A stretch of DNA of 64,000 bases from Candidatus Sulfotelmatobacter sp. GTDB taxonomy: Bacteria; Acidobacteriota; Terriglobia; Terriglobales; Acidobacteriaceae. The notes under the pieces were generated by a model that did not search any database, was not told the DNA's origin, and saw nothing but the letters and a program-made list of their open reading frames with translations. The first letter of the stretch is position 1. Each line of letters starts with the position of its first letter. The DNA lies in the NCBI GenBank assembly GCA_017883385.1, contig JADGNQ010000013.1, forward strand, positions 6,083 to 70,082, given 5' to 3'. Below, in pieces: positions 2,071 to 62,517 of the stretch. The position numbers and the translations under genes were made by a program.

Positions 2071-2176
2071 CTTGTCATCCTGAGCGAAGCGAAGGACCTC
2101 TGCACTCTTTTGCGCCATCGATGCGGCCGGCGAGTACACAGATCCTTCGCGCAAAGAACGCGCTCAGGATGACAAG
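2071..2176. repeat. R2 palindromic element, full copy (MITE/REP-like)
   Basis: Perfect 16-bp terminal inverted repeats: CTTGTCATCCTGAGCG ... CGCTCAGGATGACAAG. The inner arms AAGCGAAGGACC / GATCCTTCGCG also pair. The same termini recur at 5261, 28867, 58774 and 58906. Confidence 0.85.
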
Positions 2177-3450: not shown

Positions 3451-3566
3451 CGTAGAGACGTTGCTTGCAACGTCTCTGCCGGCAGTGCCCGGGATGCTGG
3501 CGAGCGCTACGTCGCTTGCGATCGTCTGTTCGTGGTGACAGAGACATAGCAAGCTACGTCTCTACG
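3451..3566. repeat. R1 composite palindromic element (two hairpin arms) in the ribD-ribE spacer
   Basis: Left arm CGTAGAGACGTTGCTTGCAACGTCTCTGCC (3451-3480). Right arm CAGAGACATAGCAAGCTACGTCTCTACG (3539-3566). Each arm is itself a hairpin, and the two arms are inverted relative to each other. Confidence 0.85.
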
Positions 3567-3606: not shown

Positions 3607-4248
3607 ATGTTTACTGGCATCGTGGAAGAAGTCGGGCGCATTACTCGCATCGAACAGCGCGGCGAGAACCGCCGCGTCACCATCGCCGCCAAGAACGCAC
3701 CGCAGGAACTCAAAACCGGCAACAGCGTCGCGGTGAGCGGAGTCTGCCTCACTGCGCTCGACATTAAACCCGGGTCGTTCTGCGCCGATCTCGCACCGGA
3801 GACCTGGGTGCGCACGTCGTTCTCGCGCATTCATGAAGGAGCTTTGGTCAACCTCGAACTGCCCATGAAGGCCGATGGGCGCTTTGGCGGGCACATCGTT
3901 CAGGGCCACGTGGACGGCGTCGGCAAACTGATCGCCTTCGATCGCATCGCTGATTCGGAAAACTGGTGGCTGGACATCGAATTGCCCGACGACGTCGAGA
4001 AGTACACCGTCTACAAGGGTTCGATTTCGATCGAGGGCATCAGTCTTACGGTGGCGAAACTGGAAAAGAATCGCTGCACTGTCGCCATCATCCCCCACAC
4101 GGTGGAGATGACGAATCTGCATTCGCTGAAGCCCGGCGATCCCGTCAACCTGGAAGCAGACCTGATCGCAAAGTACGTCGAGAAGATGATGAAGGGCGAC
4201 GCGGAGAGTTCGCTCACAGTGGAAGAACTGGTGCAGCAAGGGTTTTAG
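3607..4248 (+). CDS. ribE: Riboflavin synthase (alpha chain)
   Basis: 213-aa ORF with the hallmark N-terminus MFTGIVEE and an internal duplication (GHVDGVG..., SLTV). Confidence 0.9.
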   Translation: MFTGIVEEVGRITRIEQRGENRRVTIAAKNAPQELKTGNSVAVSGVCLTALDIKPGSFCADLAPETWVRTSFSRIHEGALVNLELPMKADGRFGGHIVQGHVDGVGKLIAFDRIADSENWWLDIELPDDVEKYTVYKGSISIEGISLTVAKLEKNRCTVAIIPHTVEMTNLHSLKPGDPVNLEADLIAKYVEKMMKGDAESSLTVEELVQQGF

Positions 4249-4257
4249 ACGACTCGT

Positions 4258-4353
4258 CGTAGAGACGTTGCTTGCAATGTCTCTGCCTGCAGCACCCATG
4301 CCCCCGGATGCATGGACGACGCAGGCAGAGACGTAGCAAGCTACGTCTCTACG
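4258..4353. repeat. R1 composite palindromic element, best-preserved copy
   Basis: CGTAGAGACGTTGCTTGCAATGTCTCTGCC (4258-4287) ... GGCAGAGACGTAGCAAGCTACGTCTCTACG (4324-4353). The middle also pairs (GCCTGC..GCAGGC, CATGC..GCATG). It is followed by TGTTTTT, so it may terminate ribE and the convergent ABC gene. Confidence 0.85.
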
Positions 4354-4363
4354 AATACTGTTT

Positions 4364-5131
4364 TTACGCTTCCAGCTTCAGTTCATCCAGTTCAAGGAAT
4401 TCCTGGACAATAGGCACGCTGCATTTTTCCATTTCTGCGTAGGTGCCGAAGAAGATTGCCTTCCCTTCATGCAGAAACACGACTCGCTCGGCGAGTTTCT
4501 TGGCGAGGCGCATGTCGTGGGTCACGACGATGCTGGTCAGGTTCAGTTGAATCTTGAGGCGCTTGATGAGGTCGCCGAGCAGTTGCGCCATCAGCGGATC
4601 GACCATGGTTGTGGGCTCATCGTAGAGGACGCATTCCGGCCGCGCGGCCAGCGCCCGCGCAATGGCGACCGACCGCTTCATGCCAGTCGAAAGATCGGAG
4701 GGAAGAAGGTCGCGCATCTCCTGCACGCCAACCATTTGCAGCAGGCCATCCACGATCTGGTAAATCTGCTCCTCGTTCAAATCCTGGGATTCACGCAGGG
4801 GAAAAGCCACGTTTTCGCCAACCGTGAGCGAGTCGAAGAGAGCTCCATTCTGGAAGACCATGGTGACTTTCTTGCGGATCAGTTCGAGTTGCTCCTCGGT
4901 GTAGTCGGTGATGTCCTCCCCGGCGACGATGACGCGTCCGGAGTCGGGCTTGAGAAATCCCATGATGTGGTGCAGCGAAACGGACTTGCCCACTCCGCTG
5001 CGTCCCAGAATGCACACGGTCTCGGCCGGCAGCACATCGAAGCTCACATGGTCGAGAACGACGTTGTCGCCAAATGCTTTGCTCACGTCGCGGAATTCGA
5101 TGTAGGGCGCGGATTTGGAATCGTCGGGCAT
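4364..5131 (-). CDS. ABC transporter ATP-binding protein, MlaF/Mkl-like
   Basis: 255 aa with Walker A GRSGVGKS, signature LSTGMKRSVAIARAL and Walker B VLYDEPT. The overall layout resembles MlaF-type ATPases. No permease gene is adjacent. Confidence 0.85.
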   Translation of the reverse strand: MPDDSKSAPYIEFRDVSKAFGDNVVLDHVSFDVLPAETVCILGRSGVGKSVSLHHIMGFLKPDSGRVIVAGEDITDYTEEQLELIRKKVTMVFQNGALFDSLTVGENVAFPLRESQDLNEEQIYQIVDGLLQMVGVQEMRDLLPSDLSTGMKRSVAIARALAARPECVLYDEPTTMVDPLMAQLLGDLIKRLKIQLNLTSIVVTHDMRLAKKLAERVVFLHEGKAIFFGTYAEMEKCSVPIVQEFLELDELKLEA

Positions 5132-5135
5132 GATC

Positions 5136-5236
5136 AGCTCTTAGCTCTTAGCTCTTAGCTCTTAGCTCTTAGCTCTTAGCTCTTAGCTCTTAGCTCTTAG
5201 CTCTTAGCTCTTGGCTCTTGGCTCTTGGCTCTTGGC
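5136..5236. repeat. Heptanucleotide microsatellite: (AGCTCTT)x11 then (GGCTCTT)x3
   Basis: Counted directly. There are 11 perfect AGCTCTT units at 5136-5212 and 3 GGCTCTT units at 5213-5233, followed by degenerate GGCTGTC. The tract starts 5 nt from the ATG (5131) of the minus-strand ABC ATPase gene. Confidence 0.95.
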
Positions 5237-5260
5237 TGTCAGCTATCAGCCAACAACGCG

Positions 5261-5303
5261 CTTGTCATCCTGAGCGCGCGTTCTTTGCGCGCGAAGGACC
5301 TAT
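5261..5303. repeat. R2 element, solo half copy
   Basis: CTTGTCATCCTGAGCGCGCGTTCTTTGCGCGCGAAGGACC matches the reverse complement of the right half of the 2071-2176 copy. Confidence 0.75.
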
Positions 5304-5314
5304 GCAACTTCTCT

Positions 5315-18019: not shown

Positions 18020-18162
18020 CAATTCATTTCAGCTCATGTGGCGACAGCCGCCCCGGCTGTCCCGGCAGGGGCGAAGCCCCGCCGGAATCGAGCAAGACAG
18101 CCACGGCGCTTGAAAACCCACCATTGCCAAACGAACATGGAAGTCCATCGCTGACTCTAGCT

Positions 18163-25140: not shown

Positions 25141-27078
25141 ATGGATCTGCTCGCGAAAATCCGCACCATTCCCACCGAGCCCGGCGTGTATCTCTACAAG
25201 AACGCCCAGGGCGACGTCATTTACGTGGGCAAGGCGAAGAACCTGCGCAGCCGCGTGGCCAGCTACTTCCACGAGGGCCGGTGGGAGGACGCCAAGACCG
25301 GCACCCTCGTGCGCGAGGCGGTCGACGTCGACTACATAGTCGTCGCCAACAACAAAGAGGCACTGGCGCTCGAGAACAACCTCATCAAGCAGCGCAAGCC
25401 ACGCTTCAATATCCTGCTGCGCGACGACAAGACTTACCCTTACGTGAAACTCACGCTCGGCGAGCGCTGGCCGCGCGTTTACGTTACCCGCCGCCTGCGC
25501 AAGGATGGCAGCGCGTACTTCGGTCCCTACTTTCCTGCCAATCTTGCCTATCGCATCGTCGATCTTATCCACCGCAATTTTCTGATTCCTTCGTGCAAGG
25601 TCGACCTCACGCGTTTTCATCCGCGCCCATGCCTGCAGTACTACATCAAGCGCTGCCTGGGGCCGTGCGTAAAGGACTTGACGACCGCCGAGGTATATCA
25701 GGAAGCCGTGCGCGACGTGAAGTTATTCCTGGAAGGTCGCCCCACGGATTTGAGCCGCTCGCTGCATGGTCGTATGGAGCAGGCTGCCGCGGCGCAAGAG
25801 TACGAGCGCGCCGCCCGCTATCGCGATCTGATCTCAACCGTCGAGCAGTTGCAGGAGCGCCAGCGCATGGCCGCCGCCGAAGGCGACGATGCCGACGTGT
25901 TCGGCTATCACTACGAGAACGGCATGCTGGCTGTGAACCTCTTCCACATGCGCGGCGGCAAGATGGTCGACCGCCGGGAGTTCTTCTGGGAAGACCTGCC
26001 GGAGTTCGCCGCACCAGAACCTGCTCGTAGAGACGTTGCTTGCAACGTCTCCGCCGATGGCACTACCGAAGCCAGCGAGAACACGGGTGCCGGCAGCAGA
26101 GACGGTGCCAGCAATGTCTCTGCAGAATTCGTTCCCGGTGAATTCTTCTCTGCTCTGCTGAAGCAGCTCTACATCGGACAACCCTACGTCCCCCGCAACC
26201 TCTACGTTCCAGTCGATTTCGAAGATCGTGAAGCGCTCGAAGATCTGCTCTCCGAACAGAGCGCAGGCGAAAACTCGCGCGCCGCGCGCGCGCATATTCT
26301 CGTCCCGCAGCGTGGCGACAAGCGCTCGCTCATCGATCTCGCCGGAAATAACGCCAAGCAATCCTATGACCAGCGCTTCCGCGTGCTCAAACCCAACGCG
26401 CGGAAGATTCAGGAAGAGTTGCAGGAAGCGCTGAGCCTGCCCGAACTGCCCAAACGCATCGAGTGTTTCGACGTCTCGCACATTCAGGGCGCCGAAACCG
26501 TCGCCTCGATGGTGGTCTGGGAAGAGGGCAAGATGAAGAAGTCGGACTACCGCAAGTTCATCATCCGCACGGTCGAAGGAGTGGACGACTTCGCCTCCAT
26601 GCGCGAGGTGGTCACGCGCCGCTACAAACGTTTGCAGGACGAAAAGAAACCCTTGCCCAGTCTGGTGTTGATTGACGGCGGCCTCGGACAACTGCACGCT
26701 GCTGCCGAAGCGCTGGATTCACTCGAGATCATCAACCAGCCGCTGGCCGCCATCGCCAAGCGCGAGGAAATCCTGTATGTCTTCGGGCAAGAGAAAGACC
26801 CCATTGCGCTCGATCATCATTCGCCGGTGCTGCATCTGATTCAGCTGATTCGCGACGAGGCCCACCGCTTCGCCGTGACCTTCCACCGCAAGCGCCGGCA
26901 AATACGCGACCGCTCGACGGAATTGCTCGAGATCCCCGGCGTCGGATCGAGTACAACGCGGCGTTTACTGGAACATTTCGGCAGCGTGCAGGCAGTAAAG
27001 CAGGCTGATACTGCAGCGTTGTCGGCCGTTGTGACGAGGGCGCAGGCAGCAGCCATCCGCAATCACTTTCAACAATAG
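25141..27078 (+). CDS. uvrC: Excinuclease ABC subunit C (UvrC) carrying an in-frame repeat-derived insert
   Basis: GIY-YIG motif GVYLYKNAQGDVIYVGKAKNLRSRV, UVR motif EYERAARYRDLISTVEQL, a C-terminal endonuclease half and (HhH)2. The ORF is uninterrupted at 645 aa. Confidence 0.93.
   Translation: MDLLAKIRTIPTEPGVYLYKNAQGDVIYVGKAKNLRSRVASYFHEGRWEDAKTGTLVREAVDVDYIVVANNKEALALENNLIKQRKPRFNILLRDDKTYPYVKLTLGERWPRVYVTRRLRKDGSAYFGPYFPANLAYRIVDLIHRNFLIPSCKVDLTRFHPRPCLQYYIKRCLGPCVKDLTTAEVYQEAVRDVKLFLEGRPTDLSRSLHGRMEQAAAAQEYERAARYRDLISTVEQLQERQRMAAAEGDDADVFGYHYENGMLAVNLFHMRGGKMVDRREFFWEDLPEFAAPEPARRDVACNVSADGTTEASENTGAGSRDGASNVSAEFVPGEFFSALLKQLYIGQPYVPRNLYVPVDFEDREALEDLLSEQSAGENSRAARAHILVPQRGDKRSLIDLAGNNAKQSYDQRFRVLKPNARKIQEELQEALSLPELPKRIECFDVSHIQGAETVASMVVWEEGKMKKSDYRKFIIRTVEGVDDFASMREVVTRRYKRLQDEKKPLPSLVLIDGGLGQLHAAAEALDSLEIINQPLAAIAKREEILYVFGQEKDPIALDHHSPVLHLIQLIRDEAHRFAVTFHRKRRQIRDRSTELLEIPGVGSSTTRRLLEHFGSVQAVKQADTAALSAVVTRAQAAAIRNHFQQ
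26026..26125. repeat. R1 composite palindromic element inside the uvrC coding sequence
   Basis: Left arm CGTAGAGACGTTGCTTGCAACGTCTCCGCC (26026-55). Right arm GGCAGCAGAGACGGTGCCAGCAATGTCTCTGCAG (26092-26125). It has the same architecture as the copies at 3451 and 4258. Confidence 0.8.
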
Positions 27079-28866: not shown

Positions 28867-28929
28867 GTGTCATCCTGAGCGAAGAGGCAAGGGCGCAAGG
28901 CGCTTGCTGCGCAGTCGAAGGATCCCTCT
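28867..28929. repeat. R2 element, variant copy
   Basis: GTGTCATCCTGAGCGAAGAGGCAAGGGCGCAAGGCGCTTGCTGCGCAGTCGAAGGATCCCTC, starting 19 nt after the TolB-like stop. Confidence 0.7.
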
Positions 28930-28962: not shown

Positions 28963-29217
28963 CTATTTCGCGACGCTGTCGCGTTCCGCCGTTGCCTTCT
29001 TCACGGCCAGAGTCTTATCCACCCACTCATCGGCGGTTTTCAAATCTTCCTTGCGCGCGGCGGCATCGCCGCATTCCAGGTCGGCCTTCTCGCGATACAT
29101 CAAATTCAGGTACGCCATCGCGTCGTCGTAGTCAGGACGCAGTTCGATGGCCTTCTTTAGCGAGTCGATCCCATGTTCGACGACGGACAGGATCCGAGCC
29201 CGAAGGGCGACACTCAT
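28963..29217 (-). CDS. Short TPR-like protein, possibly a 5'-truncated gene remnant
   Basis: 84 aa. The segment AIELRPDYDDAMAYLNLMYREKADL looks like the last TPR of a longer protein. There is no signal or N-terminal domain. The ATG and first 8 codons lie inside repeat R4. Confidence 0.4.
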   Translation of the reverse strand: MSVALRARILSVVEHGIDSLKKAIELRPDYDDAMAYLNLMYREKADLECGDAAARKEDLKTADEWVDKTLAVKKATAERDSVAK

Positions 29218-29286
29218 TAGCCCCGGACGTAAGTCCGGGGTTAAGCTAGGACGTAGAATCGAGTCCCGTAAGGGACGACACTAAAT
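29196..29286. repeat. R4 repeat cluster: three short hairpins, two with a CGACACT tail
   Basis: GAGCCCGAAGGGCGACACTCATT (29196-218). CCCCGGACGTAAGTCCGGGG (29221-40). GAGTCCCGTAAGGGACGACACTAAAT (29261-86). On the plus strand two of the loops are GTAA (GNRA-type). Confidence 0.7.
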
Positions 29287-29908: not shown

Positions 29909-30068
29909 TTGTGCGGTGCAGATTACGAACGTGCGCGGAATCTTTCGGCTGAGACCGGCGCCGTCTCAGGGCAGGAATGACTAGGACCTGTAACCATCGC
30001 CTGAGCGAGACGTTTCTTGTTACATTGGTTTAGCGAGCGCGCCGCTCAAAGCACGCTATTGAATGGGT

Positions 30069-30100
30069 GGCAAAGAGACGCCGCAAGCTGCGTCTCTACG
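30069..30100. repeat. R1 element, solo right-arm copy
   Basis: GGCAAAGAGACGCCGCAAGCTGCGTCTCTACGAA matches the 4324-4353 arm. It lies 19 nt upstream of the MscS-like start. Confidence 0.7.
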
Positions 30101-30119
30101 AATCGATTTCGGAATCTTT

Positions 30120-35350: not shown

Positions 35351-35400
35351 TTCTTTTGCGACCTTTGCGGCTGTGCTTTGCGAACTTGGCGGTTAAGAGC
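35351..35400. repeat. R3 repeat
   Basis: TTCTTTTGCGACCTTTGCGGCTGTGCTTTGCGAACTTGGCGGTTAAGAGC, ending 18 nt before the symporter ATG. Confidence 0.7.
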
Positions 35401-35418
35401 TTCTGTGGATTGTGCCCT

Positions 35419-36844: not shown

Positions 36845-36892
36845 TCTTCTTTGCGATCTCCGCGGACTTCTCTGCGTTCTTCGCGGTTACAT
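36845..36892. repeat. R3 repeat
   Basis: TCTTCTTTGCGATCTCCGCGGACTTCTCTGCGTTCTTCGCGGTTAC, beginning 2 nt after the symporter stop. Confidence 0.7.
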
Positions 36893-37076
36893 GCTCTCCG
36901 CTGTGCCTCCGAGAAGAAATCAACCGACGAGTTCGCAAAGAATGCGCAAAGGCTGCAAGAGGAGCACTATGAGCGCCACCATCTCGGTCTCGTTTTGGGA
37001 ATACGCTCCACATCTCCCCCCGTCGTCTGTCATGCGGTGAATCTCGCGGAGTAGAGTTCTTCTTGAGGTGCAAAGT

Positions 37077-37511: not shown

Positions 37512-37598
37512 CCGCGGAGCGCGCGGAGCTAATCCCTTGATTTTGGTCTTCTCCGCGTCCTCTGCGGCCCTTTCTCTGCGTTCTCTGCGGTTAAAAGC
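37506..37598. repeat. R3 repeat: an inverted partial copy plus a direct full copy
   Basis: CTGTAACCGCGGAGCGCGCGGAG (inverted) includes the TAA stop of the GxxExxY gene. It is followed by TTCTCCGCGTCCTCTGCGGCCCTTTCTCTGCGTTCTCTGCGGTTAAAAG. Confidence 0.7.
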
Positions 37599-37635
37599 TT
37601 TGCTCGCCCTTCGCGTATACTGGCTCACTTCGACG

Positions 37636-39121: not shown

Positions 39122-39226
39122 TCTCCTTGGCGACCTTTACGGATCCTTATCTTTGCGACCTCTGCGGTTAAAGGCTCTCTCCTGGTGCCGGCAAAAGCAC
39201 TTGACCGCAAAGGTCGCCAAGAAAAG
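39122..39226. repeat. R3 repeat: a direct copy plus an inverted partial copy
   Basis: CTCCTTGGCGACCTTTACGGATCCTTATCTTTGCGACCTCTGCGGTTAAAGGCTC, then the inverted CTTGACCGCAAAGGTCGCCAAGAAAAG. Confidence 0.7.
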
Positions 39227-50454: not shown

Positions 50455-50479
50455 GAGTACCTTGGCTGGGGAGCCGAAC

Positions 50480-50593
50480 CCTTAACCGCAGACAACGCAA
50501 AGAAGACCCGCGAAGATCGCGAGGAAGAACTCACTGAAGAACCTTCCCTTTGCGTACTTTGCGGCTCTTCTTTGCGTTCTCTGCGGTTAAAGG
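50480..50593. repeat. Inverted pair of R3 repeats filling a convergent spacer
   Basis: CCTTAACCGCAGACAACGCAAAGAAG (inverted) ... CTCTTCTTTGCGTTCTCTGCGGTTAAAGG (direct). The pair can fold into one long hairpin between the gene ends at 50454 (+) and 50597 (-). Confidence 0.75.
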
Positions 50594-50596
50594 CGG

Positions 50597-53964: not shown

Positions 53965-56900
53965 CTACTTCGCGCCCAGATCGTCGTGCTCGTGATAGTT
54001 CGGGTATGGCGGACGCTTGATCTCGGGTAGCGGATGATCTTTCAATTGCTGCATCACCACCTCGATCGCTTTCTCGAGTTGGGCGTCGTGGCCTTGCTTC
54101 CATGCTGTCGGTTCGAGATCGACTTCGACGTCTGGCGGGACGCCGTGGTTCTCGACCTCCCATTCACCGTTGAGTCCATAGATGGCCGCTCGCGGAGCGG
54201 TGACACGGCCACCGTCGATGAGTTCGGGATAGCCGCCAATGCCTACCAGTCCGCCCCAAGTCTTCTTGCCGATCAACGGGCCGATGCCGGCCTTGCGGAA
54301 GTACCAGGGCAACGCGTCGCCGCCGGAGCCGGACATTTCGTTGATGATCATGACCTTCGGACCGTAGATCGCTTCCGAAGGACTCGACCAGTCATGACCC
54401 TCGCGAGTGACGACCTTGCTCATCATGGGACGGCGCAAGTGGTCGACGATGTAGTCGGCGAGTTGTCCACCTTCATTGAAGCGTTCGTCGATGATGGCTC
54501 CTTCCTTGCCCACTTGCGAAAAGTAGTAGCGGTTGAAACTCGTATAGCCCGCGCCGGCAGTATTGGGCACATGCACATAGGCGACGCGGCCTCCGGTGGC
54601 TTGATCGACGCGGCGGCGATTGTTTTCGATCCAGGCGAGATGGCGAAGGTTTTCTTCGCTCTCGACCGGAACGACCGTGACGTCGCGAGAGTCTTTGCCG
54701 TCAGAATTGGCGCCGACTTTCAGCACGACCTGCTTCCCTGCCGTCTCTTCGAAGAAGCTGTAGATATTGTCGGAAGCATGCAGATCGCGGCCGTTCACTG
54801 CAAGGATGTAGTCTCCGGCCTTGACGTTGACGCCGGGCTGGGTCAGCGGAGCCTGGTTGCCGGGATTCCAGTTCTCTCCGTCAAAGACCTTCGCTATCCG
54901 ATAGCGGCCGTTCTCCAGGCTGTAGTCGGCGCCGAGGAGGCCGCCTTTGAGCTTCTTCGGTTCAGGCACCTCGCCGCCGCCGACGAACATGTGTCCGACG
55001 GTGAGTTCGCCCAGACACTCTTCGAAGAGATAGGTGAGTTCGCCGCGGGAAGCGATGCCGTCGAGGTACGGCGCGTACTTCTTCTTGGCCTTGTCGAGGT
55101 CGAGGCCGTGATAGTGCAAGTCGTAGAAGAAGTCGCGCTCAATGCGCCAGGTCTCGTTGTAGATCTGCTTCCACATGGCGCGGGGCTCGACGTAGACTTC
55201 CCAGCCGTCGAGCTTGAGCGGGCCGAAACCAGGTTTGGGCGGACCGCTGCCGCCGGGGCCGTCATCGGCTGATGCGGTTGCCCAAGAGTCACCTTTGCGG
55301 TAGAGAACCTTTTCGCCGTCGAAGGAGATGGTGAAGTCGTTGACTTCGTCCATGAACTTGTCGGCCTTGCGCTTGCTGAGATCGAACTTCTGAATGGTTT
55401 GATTCAGGTTGGGCTGATCGTCTTCGGTGATGACTTGTGGACCCTCGGAGAGGAATAGAATTCCCGACTTGCCGGAAAGCAGGTTCAGGTAGTTCTTGGG
55501 CGGAATTGGCAGCGAGAGGATGCGTTGACCGATGCCTTCGATGTCGACTTTGACGACGACGGGTTCGTCTTTCTTGTCTTTGTCTTTGTCTTTGTCTTTG
55601 TCTTTCTCCTTGTCTTTGTCCTTGTCGTCTTTGCTCTTATCCTTGTTGGCCGATTTGTCGTCGGCTTTGCTCTTGTCTTTGGCTTTATCCTTATCCTTGG
55701 CCTGATCTTTGTCCTTGGCTTTGTCTTTATCCTGATCGGCCTTCTTCTCTTCTTTCGACTTTTCCTCGTCGCTTTCGGGAGCGAGCGGCGATTTTTCGTC
55801 TTTACTCAGAACAGCAACGTAGGCGCTGCGCGAGATGCGGTGCTCGTCGCTCGACATGTCGAGACCCGCGGTTGTCAGAGCTGTATCAGTGGAGGCCGTA
55901 AAGTAAAGGTACTTTCCATTCTTGTCGAAGGTGGGATTGAGAGCGTCGCTCATGCCGTCGGTGACCTGGAACGCCTTGCCCTGCTCGACCGAGAAGACGA
56001 ACACCGCGTGTATGCCGCTGGGAAGCTGCTTGGTGTAGGCGATCCACTTGCTGTCGGGGGACCATGTTTGATTGAGCTGCGTGGGGCCGAAGCCGCCGAA
56101 GTAGTCGGCGTCGACGAGCTTGGGCGCCGGGTTGTCGAGGTCGAGGTACCAGAGCTGCAGGCGCTTGTCGCTGTATGCGATCTTCTTGCTGTCGGGGGAC
56201 CAGGCGGGCGTGTAGAAAAACGATGGCGGAGAGCCAAGGCGAATGTGGCGAACCGGACCGAGGCCGGTCTGGTCGCGGATGGCCAAGTCATACTCTCCTG
56301 ATTCGTCGGAGAAATAGGCTATCGATTTGCCATCGGGTGACCACTGAGGGTCGCGATCGGCGACCGCGGGACTGTGGGTGAGATTGCGAATGTCGCCTTT
56401 GTCGGTGGGAACGGTGAAAATTTCTCCCCAAGCCTCAAAGACGGCGCGCGCGCCGGTGGGTGAAATGTTGAAGTTCTGAATGCGCTTGGGATCGACCTTG
56501 GCGAAGTGCGGGCGCACGGCGTCAATATCGCCGGTGACGTGGATCGTGATGTTCTTTGCCTGGTGCGTTTGCAGGTCGTAGAGCTTGATCGCGCCGAACT
56601 GTTCGATCACGATGGCATCGGGTCCGGCAGAGGCTCCCTTGAAATCGAGGCCGTCGCTGTGGAGAGCTTCCGCGACCTGCTTCGTCTTCGTGTCGTAGGC
56701 GAAGAGGCTGACCGGGCCGTTGCGGTCGGAAAGGAAATAGATTGTGTCGCCGACCCACATGGGATGGTCATCGTTGGAGTTTTCGCGAGGAATTTTCACC
56801 ACGCTGGAATCTTTGAGATCGAGAATCCAGATGGGTGTGGTTTGACCGCCGTGGTAGCGCTTCCAGGCTGCCTGCCACTTCGGATGCGGGACGTAGGCGA

Positions 56901-58773: not shown

Positions 58774-58920
58774 GTCATCCCGAGCGAAGCGAAGGACCTG
58801 GGTTCTTGCTGGCGCCGCCACAGTCTCGCGGCACACGCAGAAACCCAGGTCCCTCGCTTCGCTCGGGATGAAACATATGGGTGGTACCAGCGAATCGCGA
58901 GACTCCGCTCAGGATGACAC
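58774..58920. repeat. R2 element: a full inverted copy plus an extra terminal half-site
   Basis: GTCATCCCGAGCGAAGCGAAGGACCTGGGTT ... AACCCAGGTCCCTCGCTTCGCTCGGGATGA (58774-58872), plus CGCTCAGGATGACAC (58906-20). It occupies most of the glgA-dinB spacer. Confidence 0.85.
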
Positions 58921-62293: not shown

Positions 62294-62517
62294 TTTGAGC
62301 GGATGGATTGGATTTGTGGTGGTTGCCGCCGGGGCTTCGCCCAGGCGGGACAGCCGAGGCGCCTGTCCCCAAATGAGCATTTCTCATCTTCCAGAAAACC
62401 CTAAGAAAACCAGTAAACATCGGCGTTCCCGGGCATTTTATCAAGTACATCGGTAACTTTCACCCCCCTCCGGCGGCCATTAACCTTGTCAGAGAGTTTG
62501 CTTGGGGAGGACTGTTC

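Follow-up and report, generated by a model that had tools for sequence, protein, structure and literature searches.

Short palindromic repeats of the GTAG and CGTC types, which belong to the repetitive extragenic palindromes (REPs), occur singly and as dimers inside open reading frames (ORFs), where they typically add 20-30 aa and are enriched in the genes for UvrABCD, RecBCD, and PolI (Di Nocera et al., 2013; PMC3733652). In-frame copies have been recorded in uvrA, uvrB, and uvrC, the uvrC entries of the supplementary table being a single REP in R. conorii and a dimer at residues 550-585 in X. autotrophicus, and in recB of Xanthomonas nearly the same position is occupied by different REPs (PMC3733652). 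The phyla credited there with GTAG REPs are Proteobacteria, Cyanobacteria, Chloroflexi, and the PVC superphylum; for Acidobacteria, only Y1 transposases flanked by terminal inverted repeats are reported. Here, we describe an element of this kind, named R1, in a 64-kb stretch of DNA (64,000 nucleotides of contig JADGNQ010000013.1, hereafter the window) from a Terriglobia acidobacterium, Candidatus Sulfotelmatobacter sp., where it lies in frame inside uvrC. An earlier note on this DNA had taken in-frame insertion to be undescribed for this kind of repeat, a belief that the intragenic GTAG and CGTC REPs of that catalogue, uvrC included, show to be wrong.

A GTAG tag joined to a stem-loop, inverted doublets, and a position downstream of genes are defining for GTAG-type REPs and for REP dimers or REPINs (PMC3733652; PMC3116915). 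R1 shares with them the tag and a short G+C-rich stem-loop, inverted doublets that can form a long hairpin, dispersed and mostly intergenic copies 3′ of genes, and, elsewhere, an identical palindrome beside RayT-like genes. Its copy in uvrC further resembles the intragenic REPs of the same survey (PMC3733652) in being in frame, 20-30 aa long, and housed in a DNA-repair gene. It departs from the GTAG REPs described there in its phylum, Acidobacteria, in its long 11-bp stem, and in that no cognate RayT was located in the acidobacterial DNA sampled.

Two other classes of intragenic repeat invite comparison with R1. The Rickettsia palindromic elements (RPEs), which Ogata and co-workers reportedly described in 2000, are said to be ~100 bp long and to lie in frame in conserved genes, at surface-exposed positions compatible with protein function. 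They are mostly regarded as relics whose evolution today is that of a peptide. The analogy with them drawn in the earlier note is apt, R1 being likewise an in-frame palindromic insert in a conserved gene. The likeness is nonetheless one of behavior: the hosts, and probably the sequence families, are unrelated, R1 belongs to a RayT-associated GTAG family, and the hairpin arms of R1, in contrast to those peptide-evolving relics, stay conserved as nucleotides. The RPE work appears as references 13 and 14 in PMC3733652. With MITEs, the miniature inverted-repeat transposable elements, R1 has in common that it is a small non-autonomous repeat with inverted ends that can add a peptide segment. MITEs derive from insertion sequences of the DDE type and normally have terminal inverted repeats and target-site duplications. 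R1 differs from them in that it has no flanking duplication and that each of its ends is a hairpin of its own with a GTAG tag. Bacterial MITEs inside genes include the Coxiella QMITEs (PMC5896051), and the enterobacterial ERIC and YPAL elements are further examples.

We consider it highly probable that the uvrC segment is a GTAG-type REP doublet of REPIN-like organization, acquired in frame by an ancestor and passed on vertically. A REP dimer in a uvr gene being already documented, the basic event alone would be a catalogue entry for a new phylum. What goes beyond the published survey (PMC3733652) is the conservation of the arms at the nucleotide level across species-level divergence and the presence of several repeat families in one UvrC loop. 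An orthologous doublet in dozens of species-level lineages is a dated locus, which supplies its own neutral and coding yardsticks for gauging how arms and spacer evolve, and with the other families in the same loop nature has set up an experiment on whether insertions are tolerated or targeted.

The R1 doublet and its site in UvrC

Each R1 arm consists of GTAG and an 11-bp stem with a 2-nt loop (AGAGACGTTGC-TT-GCAACGTCTCT), the right arm of a doublet being inverted and ending in ...CTACG. The uvrC element (26026-26125) runs from CGTAGAGACGTTGCTTGCAACGTCTCCGCC to GGCAGCAGAGACGGTGCCAGCAATGTCTCTGCAG and comprises, all on the plus strand, a left arm at 26026..26055 (core 26029-26052; C-GTAG tag, 11-bp stem, TT loop) read as RRDVACNVSA, a spacer DGTTEASENTGAG at 26056..26094, and an inverted right arm at 26095..26125 (core 26098-26121) read as SRDGASNVSA, the arms lying 69 nt apart. 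The left arm forms 10/11 stem pairs and alone folds at -14.6 kcal/mol (z -4.6). The right arm is partly decayed in the source genome, with three mismatches to the core and 10/11 pairs if G-T is counted, whereas in a codon alignment the orthologues retain ...GAGACGTTGCAAGCAACGTCTCTACG. Single arms fold with z between -3.6 and -4.6, and the doublet, which permits either two small hairpins or a single long one, reaches -53 kcal/mol as RNA (z -5.8).

The 24-nt core AGAGACGTTGCTTGCAACGTCTCT recurs with ≤3 mismatches at 3454, 3540, 4261, 4327, 26029, and 26098 (0 expected from 100 shuffles), and the looser pattern GAGAC-N10-16-GTCTC finds seven arms in the window, the extra one at 30075, against 0.74 expected. 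Two of the doublets, neither assigned a strand, are intergenic: one at 3451..3566 between ribD (stop 3443) and ribE (start 3607), with an RNA fold of -62.9 kcal/mol (z -5.9), and one at 4257..4354 between ribE (stop 4248) and an ABC ATPase gene in convergent orientation (end 4364), where inverted repeat I3 has 45-nt arms that are 84% complementary and the RNA fold reaches -70.8 kcal/mol (z -12.2). Inverted repeats I3, I16, and I8 show the paired inverted arms, the doublets spanning -53 to -71 kcal/mol and z -5.8 to -12.2. CGTAG stands ahead of left arms and CTACG after right arms at 3451, 3566, 4258, 4353, and 26026, and the right-arm CTACG of the uvrC copy is kept in orthologues. No target-site duplication was found at the three doublets of the window, which are flanked by TCGC and AAAG (around CGTAG...CTACG), by TCGT and AATA, and by TGCT and GAAT. 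The ORF between the intergenic doublets (3607-4248) was considered as a RayT gene in a REPtron arrangement and rejected, as it is riboflavin synthase, ribE, preceded by ribD. A single R1-type arm, AGAGACGCCGCAAGCTGCGTCTCTACG, belongs to family D5 and inverted repeat I25 (30073..30100; no strand assigned) and coincides with the 5′ end annotated for a 636-aa ORF. In this region (30063-30111) the arm overlaps the annotated N-terminus of that ORF, MGGKETPQAASLRIDFGIFMKVRQW...; translation probably starts in reality at MKVRQW, farther downstream, in which case this arm would be extragenic.

The host ORF (25141..27078, plus strand) encodes a UvrC of 645 aa, identified by the ORF list, Pfam domains, a database protein match at 100%, and hundreds of orthologues. 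Its domains are complete: GIY-YIG (14-88), UVR (212-236), UvrC_RNaseH, UvrC_RNaseH_dom (428-579), and HhH (HHH_5; 593-642). Near-identical UvrCs in the databases are labeled Ca. Sulfotelmatobacter or Ca. Acidoferrum. No stop interrupts the frame across the element, which is translated as PARRDVACNVSADGTTEASENTGAGSRDGASNVSAEF or, over a longer span, ARRDVACNVSADGTTEASENTGAGSRDGASNVSAEF. The description in the earlier note of a ~100-bp element in frame in an uninterrupted uvrC agrees with these data in all coordinates and sequences, as does its equation of this copy with the two-arm element of the intergenic spacers, the arm cores being found in all three, and its remark that the right arm is here more degenerate than in the intergenic copies.

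Among 80 distant UvrC representatives (of 50% identity clusters) spanning both flanks, 26 have 0 residues between the anchors ...FFWEDLPEF and VPGEFF..., 12 more have 1-7, and the rest are heterogeneous at 16-106 aa. Since 38/80 have 0-7 residues at the site, the ~33-aa segment, which the earlier note had proposed to look for in an alignment with relatives, is an insertion and not an ancestral linker. In L184 and L185, which are close orthologues, the narrower anchor pair FFWEDLP and EFFSALL encloses just 15 residues, so that the site is in effect empty. The best Pfam stretch of PF22920 picks up again at residue 331, profile position 41, and a low-confidence AlphaFold model assigns residues 250-283 to three strands, 284-331 to coil, and 332-344 to a helix. 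By these criteria, the insert is predicted to fall within the middle RNase H-like domain (PF22920), in the loop that joins its strand 3 to its helix 1, rather than in an inter-domain linker as had been suggested. We call this a putative surface loop because of its secondary structure, the Pfam split, and its length variability. The site tolerates large variation in length.

Inheritance and rate of change of the insert

Close UvrC orthologues carry the two-arm R1 insert in 74 of 197 cases and a single arm in 13 more (87/197 in all). Unlike the unrelated spacers of the intergenic R1 copies in the window, the spacers of the uvrC inserts are homologous from one orthologue to the next (ADS[IV]TEA.ESTGA...), which argues for one ancestral insertion inherited vertically; the insert is old.

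The rate of change was assessed with the DNA of 10 two-arm orthologues as pairwise nucleotide divergence by codon position. The rest of uvrC is under strong purifying selection, with a divergence of 0.047 at positions 1+2 versus 0.411 at position 3. In the insert spacer the corresponding values are 0.41 and 0.43, in the left arm 0.076 and 0.106, and in the right arm 0.164 and 0.200. The arms have no codon periodicity, and at every codon position they change 2-5x less than the neutral-looking spacer. Where two sequences share an amino acid, synonymous codons differ at 0.14 in the arms versus 0.42 gene-wide, and of 588 windows spanning 17 codons each, none reaches so low a value. The stems hold 9-11 of 11 pairs in most orthologues, and in one of them (L204) a compensatory stem change, GTT..AAC to GTA..TAC, came at the price of an N-to-Y replacement. 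The spacer drifts neutrally; what is conserved in the arms is the palindrome of nucleotides and not the peptide. The earlier view that the copy now evolves as peptide is at odds with these rates, synonymous sites included. That view had also read the degenerate right arm as a sign of age: the degeneracy is real and is peculiar to the source genome, and the age of the insert is indicated by the homologous, diverged spacers.

Conservation of the arms has its limits, as decay is seen in some lineages (L200, L201, L205, L189, and L194) besides the right arm of the source genome. Between a single-arm allele (P0073) and a two-arm relative (P0241) that is 94% identical, the difference at the insert is one exact gap of 23 codons between the arms. 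Such conservation of the arms would result from any of three candidate processes: selection on the hairpin, as DNA or as RNA; gene conversion from the many copies elsewhere in the genome; and intrastrand template-switch correction.

These observations suggest a history in which an ancestor of a Terriglobia clade, the Ca. Sulfotelmatobacter/Acidoferrum group, would have gained a REP doublet in uvrC, likely by single-strand hairpin transposition of the kind performed by RayT-type HUH Y1 transposases. Two frames of the palindrome are free of stops, and the doublet would have come to be read in one of these, its site being the strand 3-helix 1 loop, which has 0-7 residues in most UvrCs; it would have been tolerated because of the stop-free frame and the variable loop of the middle RNase H-like domain, the gene keeping its function and the insert then passing on vertically. 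The arms, each palindromic, double as direct repeats, and deletion between them yields the single-arm alleles of 623 aa. The loop itself is a recurrent landing or tolerance site, in which sister lineages have other dispersed palindromic repeat families, sometimes nested.

Relatives of R1, RayT, and other repeats in the loop

Scanning GTDB genomes with GTAGAGACGTWGCWWGCWACGTCTCT yielded >117 stretches. Our counts of R1 cover the 64-kb window and the fetched loci: there are 63 arms in 30 acidobacterial-type loci plus the window, ~9 of them in credible coding sequences. The flanks of 78 uvrC orthologue loci contain no R1 arm in 329 kb, a result that is uninformative. Among the matches listed, the Acidobacteriota arms have a TT or AA loop and doublets are common. 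In-frame copies occur in leucyl-tRNA synthetase (read AETLQATSL, between the catalytic and anticodon-binding domains, and orthologous in two related acidobacterial metagenome-assembled genomes), in the CCA-adding enzyme of a related assembled genome (read ERDVASNVST, within the PolyA_pol head domain), and in a membrane protein of a related acidobacterial one; these arms are at L051 2499, L111 1013, L074 3237, L051 749, and L111 3610, and the identities of the two enzymes were confirmed by Pfam.

A perfect 28-bp form of the palindrome, GTAGAGACGT[T/A]GCATGC[A/T]ACGTCTCTAC, is almost invariant and, among the matches listed (L001-L117), dispersed across many phyla, including Cyanobacteria, Bacteroidota, Chloroflexota, Patescibacteria, Desulfuromonas, Gammaproteobacteria, and others. 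REPs are normally lineage-specific, so such a spread is unusual. All-against-all clustering of the ORFs in these cross-phylum loci revealed no shared neighbor gene except three RayT-like ORFs (L066 3487-4153, L059 5145-5733, and L105 7252-7530), all in non-acidobacterial phyla and all with the palindrome both flanking the gene and in frame inside it. The first of these proteins scores 23.9 bits against Pfam Y1_Tnp (cut-off 23), and homologues of the family bear the JGI name "REP element-mobilizing transposase RayT". One copy of the palindrome lies 30 nt upstream of the L066 start codon and a second in frame directly past the HUH motif, the L059 locus being arranged likewise. We assign R1 to a RayT-associated REP family because the same palindrome flanks these genes; the 28-bp form probably travels with the RayT-like family found beside it, which may be RAYT Group 4 of PMC5581495. 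In a literature search, neither the exact palindrome nor its peptides gave a match.

Within the RayT-like family, the in-frame REP always lies directly past the HUH motif, and it is read as.RDVACNVST in 39/120 homologues and, in the other frame, as VETLHATSL in 28/120, some homologues having hybrid readings (VETLQCNVST) or tandem half-repeats. As it is read in either frame, it is a feature of the nucleotide level, and it is possibly autoregulatory. We know of no description of an in-frame REP inside RayT genes.

The UvrC loop itself is occupied by more than R1. In 64/197 close orthologues it holds a GTGG-tagged palindromic family (HVGTAAPGCPGEQSSP...RPSPH), in 26/197 a CHPERSEG...RGPQDD family, in 3/197 both of these, nested, and in 2/197 a further type, GGTAEAVPFP, which only weak matches support as a dispersed repeat family; 12/197 have other or decayed inserts and 3/197 little or nothing. 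At least two, and probably three, other dispersed repeat families lie in this loop in sister lineages. The CHPERSEG inserts match at the DNA level a palindromic family of the window (2071-2149, 5260-5307, 28868-28884, and 58774-58871) that ends in TGTCATCCTGAGCGAAGCGAAGGACC...CCTCAGGATGACA and reads in frame CHPERSEG.../...RGPQDD. A GTGG-tagged palindromic repeat at 18032-18087 and 62323-62378 (CATGTGGCGACAGCCGCCCCGGCTGTC...) is related to the family of the HVGTAAPGCPGEQSSP inserts, and both families have copies in unrelated loci.

Alternative explanations and further features of the window

A host function of the insert, whether exerted by the uvrC hairpin in mRNA or DNA or by the RRDVA.NVS peptide, for instance in uvrC expression, mRNA stability, or UvrC activity, would fit the nucleotide-level conservation of the arms, the stable RNA fold of the insert, and the recurrence of REPs in uvrA, uvrB, and uvrC across phyla; an altered function of REP-decorated repair proteins was already a matter of speculation in Di Nocera et al. 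(PMC3733652). We nevertheless judge such exaptation unlikely. Equally conserved orthologues have unrelated repeats or nothing in the loop, so that no particular insert is required; a role as peptide is improbable given that the reading frame of the palindrome differs from gene to gene and that the arms lack codon periodicity; and gene conversion or template-switch correction could conserve the arms with no benefit to the host.

That the insert is instead a neutral relic, an old insertion devoid of a role as nucleic acid and now an unconstrained peptide linker, was the view of the earlier note. The mismatches in the right arm of the source genome, the decay of arms in five other lineages, and the unconstrained spacer are all as such a relic would have them. 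They are outweighed by the slow, aperiodic change of the arms at all codon positions, by a synonymous change below that of every 17-codon window of uvrC, and by a compensatory stem change made at the cost of an amino acid, and we regard this view as distinctly improbable.

Recurrent site-specific insertion, in which R1 and other families would have hit the uvrC site independently and well-preserved arms would merely be young, draws on the two or three other families and nested composites in the same loop, on the interleaving of insert types in clustering, and on the known tendency of REPs to cluster. Against it stand the homology of the R1 spacers among uvrC orthologues, arms placed at the same codon in all of them, and a neutral-like spacer divergence of 0.41, by which the insert is not young; we give this scenario very little credence. 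An artefact, be it a chimeric assembly or a pseudogene whose frame is open by chance, is conceivable for a metagenome-assembled contig and can be practically dismissed, because the same insert recurs in >70 orthologues assembled independently (NCBI, JGI, ENA), with all domains intact and strong purifying selection on the rest of the gene.

Several points also weigh against the ancestral acquisition and vertical inheritance of a REP doublet that we favor. Insert types interleave when the masked proteins are clustered (UPGMA, the unweighted pair group method with arithmetic mean, on p-distances, of low resolution), which could reflect turnover, recombination, or simply that low resolution. The rate test comprises only 10 two-arm orthologues with DNA, and these are phylogenetically related. 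The UvrC model, built from a shallow alignment, is poor (mean predicted local distance difference test score, pLDDT, 43.6) and too poor for a fold search, and the PDB holds no structure covering the middle region. A RayT-like ORF was found neither in the window nor in any of the ~30 loci fetched from acidobacteria, a sample of only ~0.3 Mb of DNA from that phylum, so that mobilization by RayT in this lineage is extrapolated from other phyla.

A bolder proposition is that, over species-level timescales, REP hairpins in coding sequences are subject to active maintenance as structures of nucleic acid and that the UvrC loop is a preferred landing pad for several unrelated hairpin families. We think it a long shot. 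If true, it would, together with the in-frame REPs in RayT genes, point to a link between REP/RayT hairpins and particular host genes, nucleotide-excision repair among them, the alternative to such a functional or mechanistic link being the plain tolerance of junk. For annotation, the consequence is practical: peptides like RRDVA[CS]NVST, VETL[HQL]ATSL, and CHPERSEG, where they occur in proteins of acidobacteria, derive from repeats and are not to be taken for conserved motifs.

The window holds other repeats and one small RNA (sRNA). In Rfam, nothing matches at the uvrC element, and the only match in the window is the Acido-Lenti-1 sRNA at 29197-29240 on the minus strand (40.6 bits; gathering score, 37). 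The heptamer AGCTCTT forms a near-perfect array of 14.6 copies at 5136-5237, directly upstream of where the ABC ATPase gene starts (minus strand, 4364..5131). A dispersed repeat, ...TCTTTGCGTTCTCTGCGGTTAAAGGC..., has five copies (35370-35401, 36864-36895, 37568-37599, 39145-39176, and 50479-50595), one of which is an inverted pair (50479-50593). Finally, an imperfect 6/18-nt tandem array (CTTGTC/TTTGTC...) at 55573-55733 would encode, on the minus strand, a K/D-rich low-complexity stretch.

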